From an uncultured Oscillospiraceae bacterium (GTDB lineage Bacteria; Bacillota; Clostridia; Oscillospirales; Oscillospiraceae): 32,000 nucleotides of DNA. The notes below the pieces were generated by a model. That model was not told where the DNA came from. It did no database searches and saw only the letters and a program-made list of their open reading frames with translations. The stretch lies in NCBI GenBank assembly GCA_934597165.1, contig CAKTQP010000015.1, positions 8,612 through 40,611 on the forward strand. Direction: 5' to 3'. Shown here one piece after another: positions 17,761 to 27,620 of this stretch. A program made the translations under genes and the position numbers. Every line of letters begins with the position of its first letter. Within the stretch, counting starts at the first letter, position 1.

Positions 17761-19703
17761 GCAGGAAGAAAGTAGCTGATCAAAATCCCTTCCTGCCCGT
17801 GTCCAAGGCGGACATGGAGGCCCGTGGTTGGGATTGGTATGACTTTTTGATCATCAACGGCGACGCCTATGTGGATCATCCGTCTTTCGGCGGCGTGGTC
17901 ATCGCCCGCACGTTGGAGGCGGAGGGGTATCGGGTGGCGTTCTTGCCACAACCGGACTGGCACAGTGCCGATGCGTTCCTGGCTATGGGGAAACCCCGCC
18001 TGGCGGTCATGCTCTCCTCTGGCAACCTGGACTCCATGGTGGCTCACTACACTGCCGCCAAAAAGCGCCGTCGCCAGGACGCTTATTCCCCCGGCCATCA
18101 GACCGGCTTGCGTCCGGATCGGGCGGTCATCGTCTACGCCAACCGGGTGCGGGAGGCCTTTTCGGACACACCCCTCATCATCGGCGGTCTGGAAGCCTCC
18201 TTGCGGCGATTTGCCCACTATGACTACTGGAGCAACCAGGTGCGTCGAGCCATCTTGTTCGACGCCAGAGCCGACCTGCTCATCTACGGTATGGGGGAGG
18301 CGGCCGCGTTGGAGATTGCTGCGCAGCTCAACGCCGGTGTGCCGGTGAGCGACATTACCACCGTTCGGGGCACCAGCTTTGCCGCACGAGAGCGGGAGGA
18401 TTGCGTGTATCCGTGGGTGGAGGTGCCCTCTTATGAAGAGGTGAAGGCGGACAAGGTGGCTTACGCCAAGGCCAACCAGGTGGAGTACGAGGAACACGAC
18501 CCGGTGCGGGGCAAGGCCATCTTGCAGAAGCATGGGAACCGGTGGCTGGTGACCAACCCGCCCCAGATGCCCCTGTCCACCAAGGAGTTGGATCGCATTG
18601 CGGAGCTGCCCTACGTCCGGGAGCCGCACCCCATGTACGACGCCATGGGCGGTGTGCCTTCCATCGAGGAGGTTCGGTTTTCGGTCACCCATAACCGAGG
18701 GTGTATCGGCGGCTGTAACTTCTGTGCCCTGGCCTTTCATCAGGGGCGGATGATGACCTGCCGCAGTCACGAGAGCGTCATCCGAGAGGTCACGGCGCTG
18801 ACCCATCACCCTGGATTTAAGGGCTACATCCACGATGTAGGCGGCCCTACGGCTAACCTGCGCCACCCAAGCTGTAAGAAGCAGCTGAAGGAGGGGGTCT
18901 GCGCCAAACGGGTGTGTTTGGCGCCCAAGCCCTGTCCCAACCTGGATGCGGATGAGTCCGATTATGTGGCGCTGCTGCGGAAGCTGCGAAAGATTCCTGG
19001 CATCAAGAAGATCTTCATCCGCTCCGGCATCCGCTATGACTATATGCTCTGTGACAAACGGGACACCTTCTTTCGGGAGCTGGTGCAGTACCATGTGTCC
19101 GGTCAGTTGAAGGTGGCGCCGGAGCACTGCATCAATTCGGTGCTGGACTATATGGGCAAGCCCCATATCGAGGTCTATGAGCGGTTTCAGCAGAAGTACA
19201 ACGCCCTGAACAAAAACGCTGGGAAAAAGCAGTTTTTGGTGCCTTATTTGATGTCCTCCCACCCAGGCAGCACCTTGCAGGATGCGGTGGCGCTGGCGGA
19301 GTACCTGAATGCCAGCCATCGGCTGCCGGAGCAGGTGCAGGACTTCTACCCGGTGCCTGGCTGCCTGTCCACCTGTATGTATCACACCGGCATCGACCCG
19401 CGCACCATGAAACCGGTATACGTGGCCACCGATCCCCATGAAAAGGCCTTGCAGCGTGCCTTGCTCCAGTGGAAGGTTCCGGAAAACTGGAAGCTGGTAC
19501 GGGAAGCGCTGCAAAAGGCGGGGCGAGAGGATCTGATCGGGTTTGACGCCCGGTGCTTGATCCGGCCTTATCCGCCGAGAGCGAAGAAGGTCGAGGGAAA
19601 AGGCGGCGAGAAGCGTCCGAAAGGGAAGCCCGAAGCTGGCAAAGGGAAGAAATCCACAGGGCGTGTGGAGAAAAAGGCTGGCGGGCGGAAACGGAAAGGA
19701 TAA
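17757..19703 (+). CDS. ygiQ: YgiQ-family radical SAM protein (UPF0313)
   Basis: The track ORF 17634..19703 is trimmed to ATG 17757, which overlaps the upstream stop (ATGA). The protein is 648 aa. FLPVSKADMEARGWDWYDFLIINGDAYVDHPSFG is a YgiQ-type N-terminus, and the radical SAM triad is CIGGCNFC. The C-terminal tail is Lys/Gly-rich. Confidence 0.9.
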   Translation: MSRKKVADQNPFLPVSKADMEARGWDWYDFLIINGDAYVDHPSFGGVVIARTLEAEGYRVAFLPQPDWHSADAFLAMGKPRLAVMLSSGNLDSMVAHYTAAKKRRRQDAYSPGHQTGLRPDRAVIVYANRVREAFSDTPLIIGGLEASLRRFAHYDYWSNQVRRAILFDARADLLIYGMGEAAALEIAAQLNAGVPVSDITTVRGTSFAAREREDCVYPWVEVPSYEEVKADKVAYAKANQVEYEEHDPVRGKAILQKHGNRWLVTNPPQMPLSTKELDRIAELPYVREPHPMYDAMGGVPSIEEVRFSVTHNRGCIGGCNFCALAFHQGRMMTCRSHESVIREVTALTHHPGFKGYIHDVGGPTANLRHPSCKKQLKEGVCAKRVCLAPKPCPNLDADESDYVALLRKLRKIPGIKKIFIRSGIRYDYMLCDKRDTFFRELVQYHVSGQLKVAPEHCINSVLDYMGKPHIEVYERFQQKYNALNKNAGKKQFLVPYLMSSHPGSTLQDAVALAEYLNASHRLPEQVQDFYPVPGCLSTCMYHTGIDPRTMKPVYVATDPHEKALQRALLQWKVPENWKLVREALQKAGREDLIGFDARCLIRPYPPRAKKVEGKGGEKRPKGKPEAGKGKKSTGRVEKKAGGRKRKG

Positions 19704-19748
19704 AAAAGAACCACGTGACGTCTGGTTAGGACGTTACGTGGTTTTTCT
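19704..19748. terminator. Bidirectional intrinsic terminator between ygiQ and nth
   Basis: 14-bp stem AACCACGTGACGTC/GACGTTACGTGGTT flanked by AAAAAAG and TTTTTCTTT. Confidence 0.8.
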
Positions 19749-19758
19749 TTGAAATGGG

Positions 19759-20421
19759 TTACTTTTTCCCCTCCGACGACTTCCCTTGGCTCAAGAAGTG
19801 GTCGCACCACTCGCACAGGGGACAGAGCTCACACTTGGCCGTCCGAGCGGTACACACCGCCCGTCCGTGGAGCACCAGTCGGTGGCAGAAGTCGTTGGAT
19901 TCCTCCGGCGGCAGCACTTCTCGCAGCTGCTTTTCCACCTTCACCGGGTCTTTCGTTCCGTCGGTCAGGCCCAGGCGACCGGAGATGCGGATGCAGTGGG
20001 TGTCTGCCACCACGCAGCCGGGCTCGTGGAAGATGTCGCCGCGGATGAGGTTGGCGGTCTTGCGGCCGATGCCGGGGAGTTTTAACAGGTCGTCCATGTC
20101 CCGGGGGACTTTGCCGCCGAAGTCCCGCAGCAGCATTTGGGCGCAGCCCACCAGGTCGCGGCTCTTGCCGTTGTAGAAGCCGCAGGAGTGGATGTATTCC
20201 GCCACCTCTTCCGGCGCCGCCTCGGCAAAGGCTTCCAGAGTGGGGAAGCGCTGGAACAGGGCGGGGGTGACCTTGTTCACTCGGGCGTCAGTACACTGGG
20301 CGGACAGGCGGACGGAGAACAGCAGTTCGTAATCTTTTTGGTATTGCAGGGAACAGATGCCATCCGGGTACAGTTCTTTTAGTCCGTTGACGATGGCGCG
20401 TGCCTCTTCTTTGGTCTTCAT
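19759..20421 (-). CDS. nth: Endonuclease III (DNA-(apurinic/apyrimidinic site) lyase)
   Basis: The track ORF 19759..20529 is trimmed to ATG 20421, which follows CAGGAGG. The 220-aa protein has the HhH-GPD motif LLKLPGIGRKTANL and a C-terminal 4Fe-4S cluster C..RTAKCELCPLCEWC. Confidence 0.9.
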   Translation of the reverse strand: MKTKEEARAIVNGLKELYPDGICSLQYQKDYELLFSVRLSAQCTDARVNKVTPALFQRFPTLEAFAEAAPEEVAEYIHSCGFYNGKSRDLVGCAQMLLRDFGGKVPRDMDDLLKLPGIGRKTANLIRGDIFHEPGCVVADTHCIRISGRLGLTDGTKDPVKVEKQLREVLPPEESNDFCHRLVLHGRAVCTARTAKCELCPLCEWCDHFLSQGKSSEGKK

Positions 20422-20453
20422 GGCGTGTTCCTCCTGTGATAAAGTCACCATTG

Positions 20454-20462
20454 ATTGTAGCA
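20454..20462 (-). promoter_or_regulatory. Extended -10 element (TGcTACAAT) upstream of nth
   Basis: On the minus strand TGCTACAAT lies about 30 nt upstream of the nth ATG. The -35 is weak. Confidence 0.4.
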
Positions 20463-20506
20463 TAAAACAGGGGGCGGGAAAACCCATGTTTGTAGATTTG
20501 AAATAG

Positions 20507-20535
20507 TTGACAAGTTTGGCGGGATGCACTATACT
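20507..20535 (+). promoter_or_regulatory. Consensus sigma-A promoter with no protein gene downstream
   Basis: TTGACA (20507-20512), exactly 17 nt, TATACT (20530-20535). It points toward the 3' end of the minus-strand 29-codon ORF. Confidence 0.6.
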
Positions 20536-20541
20536 GAGGAT

Positions 20542-20642
20542 AGAGCAAGGGCGCTACCGGCAAAACGGTTAGCCCCCCTGAAAAGTTACTTTATAAGAAA
20601 TAACCGCTCAAGGTGAAGGCTGAGCGGTTACTTCTTTATGTT
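20542..20642 (+). ncRNA. Candidate ~100-nt sRNA (putative type I antitoxin), promoter-to-terminator unit
   Basis: The predicted TSS is about 7 nt after the -10. The unit contains a hairpin at 20552-20573, a single-stranded C6 tract at 20573-20578, and a 10-bp terminator stem at 20601-20630 followed by CTTCTTTATGTT. It has no ATG with an RBS. The ends are predicted, not mapped. Confidence 0.4.
20601..20630. terminator. Shared bidirectional terminator hairpin of the small ORF and the candidate sRNA
   Basis: TAACCGCTCA-(10 nt)-TGAGCGGTTA. The minus strand continues TTTCTTATAAAG and the plus strand CTTCTTTATG. The stop codon of the small ORF lies in the stem. Confidence 0.65.
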
Positions 20643-20717
20643 CCATGCAGCAATGAACAGGCCAACAAGACCGATCAAAACCATCGTATACTGAAACAGG
20701 TCAGAATAGGTTACCAT
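20628..20717 (-). CDS. 29-aa hydrophobic peptide, candidate type I toxin (Hol-Tox / holin-like toxin pattern)
   Basis: The minus strand reads GAAAGGGGGGCTGTCTC-ATG. Translation: MVTYSDLFQYTMVLIGLVGLFIAAWNIKK followed by TAA. It has a single TM helix with a KK terminus. In the track it appears only as the tail of the 526-aa shadow ORF 20628..22208. Confidence 0.6.
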   Translation of the reverse strand: MVTYSDLFQYTMVLIGLVGLFIAAWNIKK

Positions 20718-20827
20718 GAGACAGCCCCCCTTTCCACAAGAAACAGGGGGCAAGAAGTATCGCCCCCTGATGAGCAGAGGGACAAACCGCTTGCCGTTTA
20801 TCGGTAGCGCCATAAAAAGGATAACAC

Positions 20828-20856
20828 AAAATGCGACAAAACGCAATGTGGTCTGT
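20828..20856 (-). promoter_or_regulatory. Candidate promoter of the small toxin-like ORF (TTGCGT-17-TGtTATCCT)
   Basis: Read on the minus strand: -35 TTGCGT (20851-20856), 17-nt spacer ending in TGT, -10 TATCCT (20828-20833). This implies a 5' UTR of about 100 nt. Confidence 0.35.
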
Positions 20857-20882
20857 TCGGCTGCAGCACGAGAAAAAGTCTG

Positions 20883-20916
20883 GGACAAACATCCCAGACT
20901 TTTTTGGCACATTGCA
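20883..20916. terminator. Bidirectional intrinsic terminator with no adjacent annotated gene end
   Basis: AAAAAGTCTGGGA-CAAACA-TCCCAGACTTTTTT, a 9-bp GC-containing stem extended by A/T runs on both sides. Confidence 0.65.
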
Positions 20917-20964
20917 TGAGAGAAAACGGAATATTCCACAAGGTCCATCTCTTTTCTTGCGTCA

Positions 20965-21020
20965 CAAAATGTGGTAAAATAGACGCAAACGCGTCTCAAA
21001 ACGTGGCAAAATAGACGCAA
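20965..21020 (+). repeat. Two 24-nt direct repeats (22/24 identical) 32 nt apart upstream of rarA
   Basis: CAAAATGTGGTAAAATAGACGCAA (20965-20988) and CAAAACGTGGCAAAATAGACGCAA (20997-21020). Each contains a TGG-nAAAAT extended -10-like element. The palindrome AGACGC-AAAC-GCGTCT (20981-20996) lies between them. Confidence 0.6.
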
Positions 21021-21044
21021 GTATGGAGAAAGGAGGCGGCACAG

Positions 21045-22316
21045 ATGCAGTACCGTCCGTTGGCCGATGAGATACGGCCTCAGACCTTGGAGGACGTGGT
21101 GGGGCAGAGCCACATCCTGGGCAAGAACGGGGTGTTGCGCCGCATCATCGAGAGCGGTCAGGTGCCCAACATGGTCTTTTTCGGCCCGTCCGGCACCGGC
21201 AAGACCACGGTGGCCAACATCATCGCCAACCAGACCCACCGCACCCTGCACCGGCTCAACGCCACCACCGCCTCCATTGCGGACATCCGGGAGGTCATCG
21301 CCGATGTGGACACCTTGCTGGCGCCCAACGGGGTGCTGCTCTACCTGGATGAGATCCAGTATTTCAACAAAAAGCAGCAGCAGTCCCTGTTGGAGTTTAT
21401 GGAGAACGGCAAGATCACCGTCATCGCCTCCACCACGGAGAACCCCTATTTCACCATCTTCAACGCCGTCCTCTCCCGCTCCACCGTCTTCGAGTTCAAA
21501 CCGGTGACGCCCCAGGAGATCCGTCCGGCGGTGGACCGGGCGTTCCGGCTGTTGGAAGAGCGCAATGGCGTGACCATCCAGGCGTCGGACGACGTGCGGG
21601 ACTACCTGGCCACCGCCTGCGGCGGCGATGTGCGCAAGGCCATCAACGGGGCGGAGCTGCTCTATACTGCTGGCGAGCAGGTGGACGGCGTGGTGACGGT
21701 GACCTTGGAGGACGCGGAGCTGGTGGGACAGAAGTCCGCATTTCGCTATGACCGGGACGGGGACAACCACTATGACATCCTGTCCGCCCTGCAAAAGTCC
21801 ATCCGAGGCAGTGACCCGGACGCGGGGCTGCACTATCTGGCACGGCTGTTGGAGGCGGGGGACTTGGTGTCCGCCTGTCGGCGGCTCATGGTCATCGCGT
21901 CCGAAGACGTGGGGCTGGCCTATCCTCAGGCGGTGTCCATTGTGAAATCCTGCATCGACGCTGCCAATATGCTGGGGTTGCCGGAGGCACGTATCCCCTT
22001 GGCGGAGGCGGTCATCTTGATGGCTACCGCACCCAAATCCAACTCCGCCATCATGGGCATCGACGCCGCCCTCAGCGATATCCGAAAGGGAAACTATGGG
22101 GACATCCCCGCCTATCTCATGGACAGCCACTACGCCGGCGCTAAAAAGCTGGGTCGCGGGCTGACCTACCAGTATCCCCACAGCTTCCCTAACCACTATG
22201 TCCCCCAACAGTATCTGCCCGACCGGCTCAAGGACGCCGTCTATTATCAGTACGGCGAGAACAAGACCGAACAGGCGGCAAAAGCCTATTGGGCGCGCAT
22301 CAAGGGGAAGGCGTAA
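21045..22316 (+). CDS. rarA: Replication-associated recombination protein A (AAA+ ATPase)
   Basis: 423 aa, RBS GAAAGGAGG. RPQTLEDVVGQSHILG, Walker A GPSGTGKTT, Walker B LLYLDEIQYFNK, and the C-terminal MgsA region DNHYDILSALQKSIRGSDPDAGLHYLARLLEAG are present. Confidence 0.9.
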   Translation: MQYRPLADEIRPQTLEDVVGQSHILGKNGVLRRIIESGQVPNMVFFGPSGTGKTTVANIIANQTHRTLHRLNATTASIADIREVIADVDTLLAPNGVLLYLDEIQYFNKKQQQSLLEFMENGKITVIASTTENPYFTIFNAVLSRSTVFEFKPVTPQEIRPAVDRAFRLLEERNGVTIQASDDVRDYLATACGGDVRKAINGAELLYTAGEQVDGVVTVTLEDAELVGQKSAFRYDRDGDNHYDILSALQKSIRGSDPDAGLHYLARLLEAGDLVSACRRLMVIASEDVGLAYPQAVSIVKSCIDAANMLGLPEARIPLAEAVILMATAPKSNSAIMGIDAALSDIRKGNYGDIPAYLMDSHYAGAKKLGRGLTYQYPHSFPNHYVPQQYLPDRLKDAVYYQYGENKTEQAAKAYWARIKGKA

Positions 22317-27591: not shown

Positions 27592-27620
27592 TTGACAGTT
27601 TGTCAGGGTTCCGATATAAT
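27592..27620 (+). promoter_or_regulatory. Consensus sigma-A promoter for the MATE gene
   Basis: TTGACA (27592-27597), 17-nt spacer, TATAAT (27615-27620). Confidence 0.65.

Follow-up and report, generated by a model that had tools for sequence, protein, structure and literature searches.

The orphan promoter at position 20507 most likely directs the synthesis of an antisense RNA of about 100 bases, which would overlap the end of a gene for a 29-residue membrane peptide. Within the window, that is, the whole stretch of 32,000 nt of Oscillospiraceae DNA analysed here, the segment 20490-20940 can with good confidence be regarded as a self-contained type I toxin-antitoxin cassette, in which the orphan promoter would drive the antitoxin. 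The analysis supports the anatomy of this cassette, the co-conservation of its parts within a family, the asymmetry of its promoters and its insertion/deletion polymorphism. The features are listed in Table 1.

Table 1. Features of the candidate cassette and its surroundings (positions in the window)
Feature	Position	Strand	Basis or remark
nth, endonuclease III	19759-20424	-	
Inserted cassette between nth and rarA/mgsA, about 450 nt	20490..20940 (approximate)	.	comparison with L001
sRNA promoter: TTGACA (20507-20512), 17-nt spacer, TATACT (20530-20535)	20507..20535	+	11/12 consensus matches
Predicted non-coding antisense RNA, about 100 nt, candidate antitoxin	20542..20642	+	sRNA profile, fold
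5' stem-loop of sRNA, GGGCGCUACCG-gcaaaa-CGGUUAGCCC	20549..20575	+	fold, 45-sequence alignment
C-tract of sRNA, AGCCCCCCUG	20571..20580	+	complementary to toxin Shine-Dalgarno region GGGGGGCU
Bidirectional terminator hairpin common to both RNAs	20595..20636	.	inverted-repeat search
29-codon ORF MVTYSDLFQYTMVLIGLVGLFIAAWNIKK, candidate type I toxin	20628..20717	-	ORF list
Toxin 5' UTR, about 94 nt	20718..20811	-	three-hairpin consensus
Toxin Shine-Dalgarno G-tract GGGGGGCU	20723..20730	-	
Anti-Shine-Dalgarno tract C2 of toxin 5' UTR	20751..20744	-	
G-tract G1 of toxin 5' UTR	20769..20762	-	
C-tract C1 of toxin 5' UTR	20783..20775	-	
Hairpin 1 of toxin 5' UTR	20808..20787	-	
Putative toxin promoter: TTGCGT, 17-nt spacer, (TGt)TATCCT	20818..20846	-	weak, extended -10
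Hairpin of 13 perfect base pairs with A and T runs on its flanks, upstream of toxin promoter	20873..20904	.	inverted-repeat search
RarA/MgsA ATPase	21045-22316	+	

The orphan promoter and its predicted antisense RNA

The 32-kb window (59.6% G+C) contains three promoter sites that match the consensus at 11 or more of the 12 positions, at 2830, 20507 and 27592, against 0.14 expected from shuffled sequences. The preliminary description had placed TTGACA-17-TATACT among the best promoters of the window and had seen no protein gene behind it, in agreement with the present scan. The promoters at 2830 and 27592 each precede a long ORF with a Shine-Dalgarno sequence, and 20507 is the sole site of the three without a protein gene, its only downstream ORFs being frames of 21 and 30 amino acids that both begin within the promoter itself. 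The sites 2830-2858 and 27592-27620 on the plus strand are the only two 12/12 sigma-70 consensus promoters of the window, and the ORFs that follow them, starting at 2943 and about 27676, are membrane-protein-like. Use of the plus-strand promoter at 20507 by nth was ruled out: nth lies on the opposite strand and has its own extended -10 (TGcTACAAT) nearer to the nth start.

Homologous loci were collected either with the peptide or with the toxin 3' end plus terminator, and none was retrieved via the promoter, so that conservation of the promoter provides a fair test. An antisense gene overlapping at the 3' end, as in txpA/RatA and bsrG/SR4, had been proposed from the window alone, together with a search for relatives that keep the peptide and have lost the promoter. 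Among 55 distinct cassettes with 31 different peptides, a convergent promoter of at least 11/12 matches and the common terminator were present in all and the promoter was absent from none (0/55), a count that overstates independent events because of the relatedness among the viral loci. Co-conservation of promoter, hairpin and C-tract, also raised earlier, was observed for the hexamers, the 5' hairpin, the C-tract and the terminator. The promoter is located 78-93 nt past the toxin stop codon, with one exception at 187 nt, in a cassette of which the sRNA body is duplicated in tandem. (In L202, the sRNA body is duplicated behind a single promoter.) On the toxin strand of the same stretch, the best site in the 55 cassettes mostly matched 6-8 of the 12 positions. 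When the 36 distinct promoters whose spacer is 17 nt long are compared, the -35 hexamer is always TTGACA (100% identity) and the -10 hexamer is 94% identical, with 59% identity in the spacer, of which 33 distinct sequences occur. A working promoter recognised by RNA polymerase would be expected to keep its hexamers fixed and to let the spacer between them drift, as seen here.

We infer that the sRNA starts near 20542 and ends near 20636-20642, giving a length of about 95-100 nt. A profile of 45 homologous sRNAs matched 20545-20642 with E = 2.5e-17, and the predicted fold, consisting of the 5' stem-loop and the terminator, gave z = -3.5 in a dinucleotide-shuffle test. No conserved ORF was found within the predicted sRNA. 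Searches against Rfam 15 (positions 19500-21500, both strands, E <= 10) returned only chance matches driven by the terminator, no Rfam family reached its gathering score in the whole window, and the Rfam models gave no indication of homology between the sRNA and RatA, SR4 or SR5.

All 45 distinct sRNAs share a layout of four parts: a short leader (about 10 nt), a hairpin at the 5' end running into the C-tract (GGGCGCUGCCGG-uaga-CGGUUAGCCC in the family), a linker variable in both length and sequence, and the terminator (AAGAAGUAACCGC...GCGGUUACUUCUUUUU). The C-tract is nearly invariant across the family and overlaps in part with the 3' arm of the 5' hairpin. Pairing in the consensus structure reaches 95%, a value that falls to 23-53% once the partners are shifted. 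For the 5' stem-loop, 95-97% of the alignment cells are paired across the 45 sequences; its changes are one-sided (wobble) and compensatory pairs are absent, so that the hairpin is supported by conservation and not by covariation. Compensatory changes of the sRNA structure are confined to the terminator, the helix of which is 99% paired in the family.

The common terminator is composed of two 16-nt arms (20595-20610 and 20621-20636, 94% complementary) around a 10-nt loop, and lies about 60 nt downstream of the sRNA promoter. It was left unflagged by a simple terminator scan because this loop exceeds the 8-nt limit of the scan. The stem 20601-20630, to which the toxin stop codon had been assigned earlier, corresponds to the G+C core of the hairpin (AACCGCTCA at 20602-20610, TGAGCGGTT at 20621-20629), and the stop codon TAA (minus strand, 20630..20628) indeed lies inside the stem. 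The U-tail of the sRNA is the complement of the terminal lysine codons of the toxin. On the plus strand, the U-tract of the window allele, ACUUCUUUAUGUU, is weaker than the CUUCUUUUU of its relatives because the window allele has two, not three, terminal lysine codons. An RNA of about 100 nt complementary to the end of the toxin mRNA had been anticipated, and this is borne out at the sequence level: the complementarity is perfect over about 45-50 nt at the two 3' ends and coincides with the terminator hairpin region.

The candidate toxin gene, its peptide family and its leader

The 29-residue peptide ends in a lysine tail and is predicted to span the membrane with one helix. Homologues were searched with the peptide padded by the in-frame upstream translation and then with a profile, which yielded at least 310 protein clusters, some of them on hundreds of contigs. 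The family members, of 28-32 residues, share the core pattern MVTYS(D/E)(L/M)(F/I)..(L/I)V(I/L)IG..GL....KKK. The window peptide gave no match to Pfam Hol_Tox at E <= 1, nor to the Fst (Pfam) and NCBIfam toxin models, whereas 22 of 50 family members matched Hol_Tox at E <= 0.1 (best E, 7.9e-07). One tested member scored 22.9 bits against the gathering threshold of 23.3 bits. The earlier label 'Hol-Tox-type' is in this respect correct in an indirect way only. Alignment by hhalign of the family with BsrG, TxpA and BsrE, the latter an alignment of only three sequences, gave an uninformative probability of 7%. Weak matches of the family were also detected to a PHROG 'holin' family (15/50), to NCBIfam ComI (11/50) and to PepG1. 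Taken together, the family appears to be a peripheral relative of Hol_Tox, not a proven member.

The preliminary description knew of no characterised RNA antitoxin for Hol-Tox peptides and considered the pairing possibly new. Pfam Hol_Tox (PF16935) scored BsrG at 34.5, TxpA at 31.3 and BsrE at 51.9 bits, all above the threshold of 23.3 bits; going by these scores, Hol_Tox is the TxpA/BsrG/BsrE family. The argument for novelty therefore fails, since these toxins already have the 3'-overlapping antitoxins RatA, SR4 and SR5 (PMC6562991).

The toxin 5' UTR is open in the frame of the toxin (20628-22208 on the minus strand, proteins P0019-P0129), and for this reason gene callers either miss the genes or report 'hypothetical proteins' of 45-110 amino acids. 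The mis-called N-terminal parts are translated UTR, the segment ...GKGGCLM..., for instance, representing the Shine-Dalgarno region. The protein-level conservation of these N-termini reflects conservation of the RNA.

Toxin promoters of the family mostly match the consensus at 7-8 of 12 positions, are TG-extended and stand at a fixed distance from the start codon. The toxin mRNA is predicted to fold with z = -5.1, with its Shine-Dalgarno sequence paired. In 20 diverse 5' UTRs, the consensus consists of three hairpins, the last of which pairs C2 with the Shine-Dalgarno sequence and contains two compensatory CG-to-UA changes. These folds point to a restraint of toxin translation in cis through sequestration of the Shine-Dalgarno sequence. 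For the toxin 5' UTR, whose hairpin 20769..20744 scored as terminator-like in a scan, a role as riboswitch or attenuator was considered and rejected, given the lack of an Rfam match and a consensus fold that sequesters the Shine-Dalgarno sequence.

Over its first 45 nt or so, the sRNA shows same-sense homology to the beginning of the toxin 5' UTR, including hairpin 1 and C1. This common 5' module is based on a repeat, 20550-20564 (plus strand) and 20797-20811, which is inverted in the DNA, and therefore the sRNA and the mRNA carry same-sense, not complementary, segments. The similarity of the two modules is significant (z > 3) in 43 of 48 cassettes, and both copies co-vary within a cassette. 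The C-tract AGCCCCCC of the sRNA and the Shine-Dalgarno sequence GGGGGGCU are predicted to form a duplex of -24.2 kcal/mol. For duplexes between sRNAs and translation starts, cognate pairs gave -21.7 and non-cognate pairs -22.4 kcal/mol, and the second G-tract of the UTR (G1) is an equally possible partner of the sRNA C-tract. A few parallel variants exist, such as GGAGGGG with CCCCUCC in L114; they do not constitute independent evidence because the C-tract also mirrors the toxin UTR. Blocking of the Shine-Dalgarno sequence by the sRNA is put forward as a hypothesis, because the energies do not favour cognate pairs, part of the tract is buried in the 5' hairpin and G1 offers an alternative.

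Insertion, spread and decay of the cassette

L001 represents the closest species found (85% identity in nth); there, the gap between nth and rarA is about 140 nt, and the whole cassette is absent together with the hairpin 20873-20904. Neither peptide nor sRNA was found at 80 nth loci of Oscillospiraceae, and on this ground the cassette is taken as an insertion. Strains of the same species (L081-L090) carry it at the same nth-rarA site. Other family members are found in unrelated surroundings, flanked by rmlB-like and EamA genes, behind NFACT, next to a phage integrase and behind GAPDH. With the pattern of toxin 3' end plus terminator, the cassette was detected on at least 120 IMG/VR viral contigs. 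The hairpin 20873-20904, which marks the outer boundary of the cassette, is probably a bidirectional terminator that insulates the toxin promoter; other cassettes have comparable hairpins on either side, which sometimes overlap the -35 of the sRNA promoter (L093, L097, L100, L103).

Several rearrangements were noted along the way. Two cassettes in tandem are found on each of the phage contigs L138, L141, L146, L205 and L222, and in L103-L105 a truncated toxin copy is fused in frame upstream of an intact copy (L103, 1525-1830). Upstream of rarA in the window, a 30-nt direct repeat (20959-20988 and 20991-21020, 90% identical) holds in each copy an extended -10-like TG(T/G)G(T/C)AAAAT; L081-L091 have one copy (31-nt indel), indicating that the rarA promoter region was duplicated in the window strain. 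Some strains carry extra genes in the gap between nth and the radical-SAM gene, namely a resolvase/recombinase with two small ORFs (L086, 3832-5093) or an inserted ORF of 264 amino acids (L088, 3599-4393), and the nth/radical-SAM neighbourhood seems to be a hotspot of insertion.

At the same nth-rarA site, deletion alleles (P0010-P0018; L091) no longer possess a toxin promoter or a Shine-Dalgarno sequence, and most of the 5' UTR and roughly the first nine codons are gone as well; the antisense promoter, the sRNA body and the terminator are left intact (L091, 2430-2900; compare window 20717-20870). Such alleles would represent an orphan antitoxin beside a toxin remnant, as expected if the peptide is harmful and the RNA harmless or protective. 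They bear on the possibility that a genuine sRNA regulates an ordinary small membrane protein of prophage origin, holin-like or ComI-like, the cassette then being an accessory gene and not an addiction module. The weak holin and ComI matches and the strong association with phage contigs are in line with such a role, but we consider it unlikely: toxin-less alleles that keep the sRNA fit selection against a harmful gene, the cassette stands alone among housekeeping genes without a lysis module, and the triple lock of weak toxin promoter, sequestered Shine-Dalgarno sequence and strong antisense promoter is a type I signature.

The mobility of the cassette, present or absent and in many contexts, and the two co-varying modules that form an inverted repeat around the ORF could also be read as a miniature mobile element, the hexamers being conserved as its ends and not as the promoter of a functional RNA. 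This is very improbable, given that the promoters lie outside the repeat, have no sequence relationship to each other and are systematically unequal in strength, and that fixed -35 and -10 hexamers around a drifting spacer are the pattern of RNA polymerase recognition. The repeats are, moreover, internal, the cassette extending past them to the insulating hairpins, and neither transposase nor target-site duplication was seen. An equally slight probability is given to the idea that the promoter acts by convergent transcription, through collision with or occlusion of toxin transcription or termination, its RNA having no role of its own: a strong promoter does face a weak one across the common terminator, but this terminator separates the two units, so that polymerases would rarely meet, and the RNA body is conserved beyond such need, the 5' hairpin and C-tract being nearly invariant outside the overlap.

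Proposed mode of action and relation to known systems

For a type I toxin-antitoxin cassette, we infer transcription, toxicity and both of the following steps of control. The weak extended -10 promoter (20846..20818, minus strand) would yield an mRNA of about 220 nt for the 29-residue membrane peptide, the G-rich Shine-Dalgarno sequence of which would be masked by a C-tract of the 5' UTR. The promoter 20507-20535 would give rise to the convergent sRNA of about 100 nt, comprising 5' stem-loop, C-tract, variable linker and a terminator that is the mirror image of the toxin terminator, with a U-tail templated by the lysine codons. By analogy with RatA, SR4 and SR5, the main action is most likely contact at the terminator loop, followed by duplex formation and decay of the toxin mRNA by RNase III. 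As a second layer, the sRNA C-tract AGCCCCCC may pair with the toxin Shine-Dalgarno sequence GGGGGGCU, leading to a translational block. Between the two, the perfectly complementary 3' overlap appears to be the safer site of action.

The common 5' module allows a further, tentative proposal, to which we attach a rather low probability: the antitoxin may have arisen from an inverted duplication of the toxin 5' module (hairpin plus C-tract) and serve as a trans-acting copy of the cis-inhibitor. The full-length mRNA would be locked by pairing of C1 with G1 and of C2 with the Shine-Dalgarno sequence; once processing had removed the 5' module, G1 would be free to bind C2, leaving the Shine-Dalgarno sequence exposed; the sRNA, anchored to the mRNA by the 3' terminator duplex, would then donate the missing C-tract and re-close the Shine-Dalgarno sequence. 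If so, the antitoxin would mimic part of its target, beyond mere complementarity.

Beyond Bacilli, enterobacteria and Clostridioides difficile, hardly any type I systems have been annotated, and a review of Clostridia in 2019 noted that homology searches had yielded almost none in other Clostridia (PMC6563280). In a non-exhaustive survey of the searchable literature, no description of this peptide/sRNA family in Oscillospiraceae or Ruminococcaceae was found. The locus defines peptide and sRNA families common in the abundant Oscillospiraceae of the human and animal gut and in their prophages, and it is of note mainly for this abundance in gut bacteria and phages and for the common 5' module. 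A covariance model built from the sRNA alignment would permit annotation of such cassettes. The practical gain lies in annotation and prophage biology, together with a compact and well-defined RNA pair for experimenters.

Among known systems, the cassette resembles fst/RNAII (par) of the Enterococcus faecalis plasmid pAD1 in that one bidirectional terminator is common to toxin mRNA and antitoxin. The 5' contacts of par arise from repeats that are direct in the DNA (DRa/DRb) and give complementary RNAs, whereas the repeat in the window is inverted and gives a same-sense module; the window peptide also differs in its lack of an Fst Pfam match. A further likeness to fst/RNAII (PMC8594479), here as a prediction, is a second contact region near the toxin translation start, outside the overlap. 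SprA1/SprA1AS of Staphylococcus aureus likewise combines a 3' overlap with a proposed pairing between the non-overlapping 5' domain and the toxin ribosome-binding site, the interaction there occurring outside the overlap (PMC8594479). In contrast to SprA1/SprA1AS, the Shine-Dalgarno pairing in the window is a prediction of 8-10 bp that is not cognate-specific, and the peptides are unrelated.

The closest parallels are txpA/RatA, bsrG/SR4 and bsrE/SR5 of Bacillus subtilis. They share with the cassette a short peptide that has the motif M-x-T-Y-(S/E)-x-L near its N-terminus, a single transmembrane helix and a tail of lysines; a convergent antisense RNA of about 100-200 nt, here a predicted one, covers the toxin mRNA at its 3' end, the last part of the ORF included. 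A convergent antisense gene with 3'-3' overlap, the hallmark of the TxpA/RatA type, is thus present as far as the sequence tells. The sRNA of the window differs from RatA, SR4 and SR5 in that its 5' module copies the toxin's own 5' UTR, a feature that is not known from these three. The cassette also departs from the Bacilli systems in its host, a high-G+C member of Oscillospiraceae, and in an overlap that is the terminator hairpin only, and from TxpA/BsrG/BsrE in a peptide below the Hol_Tox threshold and an sRNA without an Rfam family. RatA, SR4 and SR5 base-pair with the txpA, bsrG and bsrE mRNAs at their 3' ends, and SR4, the contact of which begins at the terminator loop, also tightens the sequestration of the bsrG Shine-Dalgarno sequence (PMC6562991); partial sequestration in cis is predicted for the window toxin as well. 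The 3'-overlap layout is listed in T1TAdb for all these Gram-positive families (PMC8594479), and the TxpA/BsrG and BsrH/BsrE families, like the present one, are often found in prophages (PMC6562991, PMC6563280, PMC8594479). The classical type I arrangement combines a locked Shine-Dalgarno sequence with promoters of unequal strength, strong for the antitoxin and weak for the toxin (PMC6562991), and the cassette described here, though unannotated, conceptually follows the RatA/SR4 pattern.
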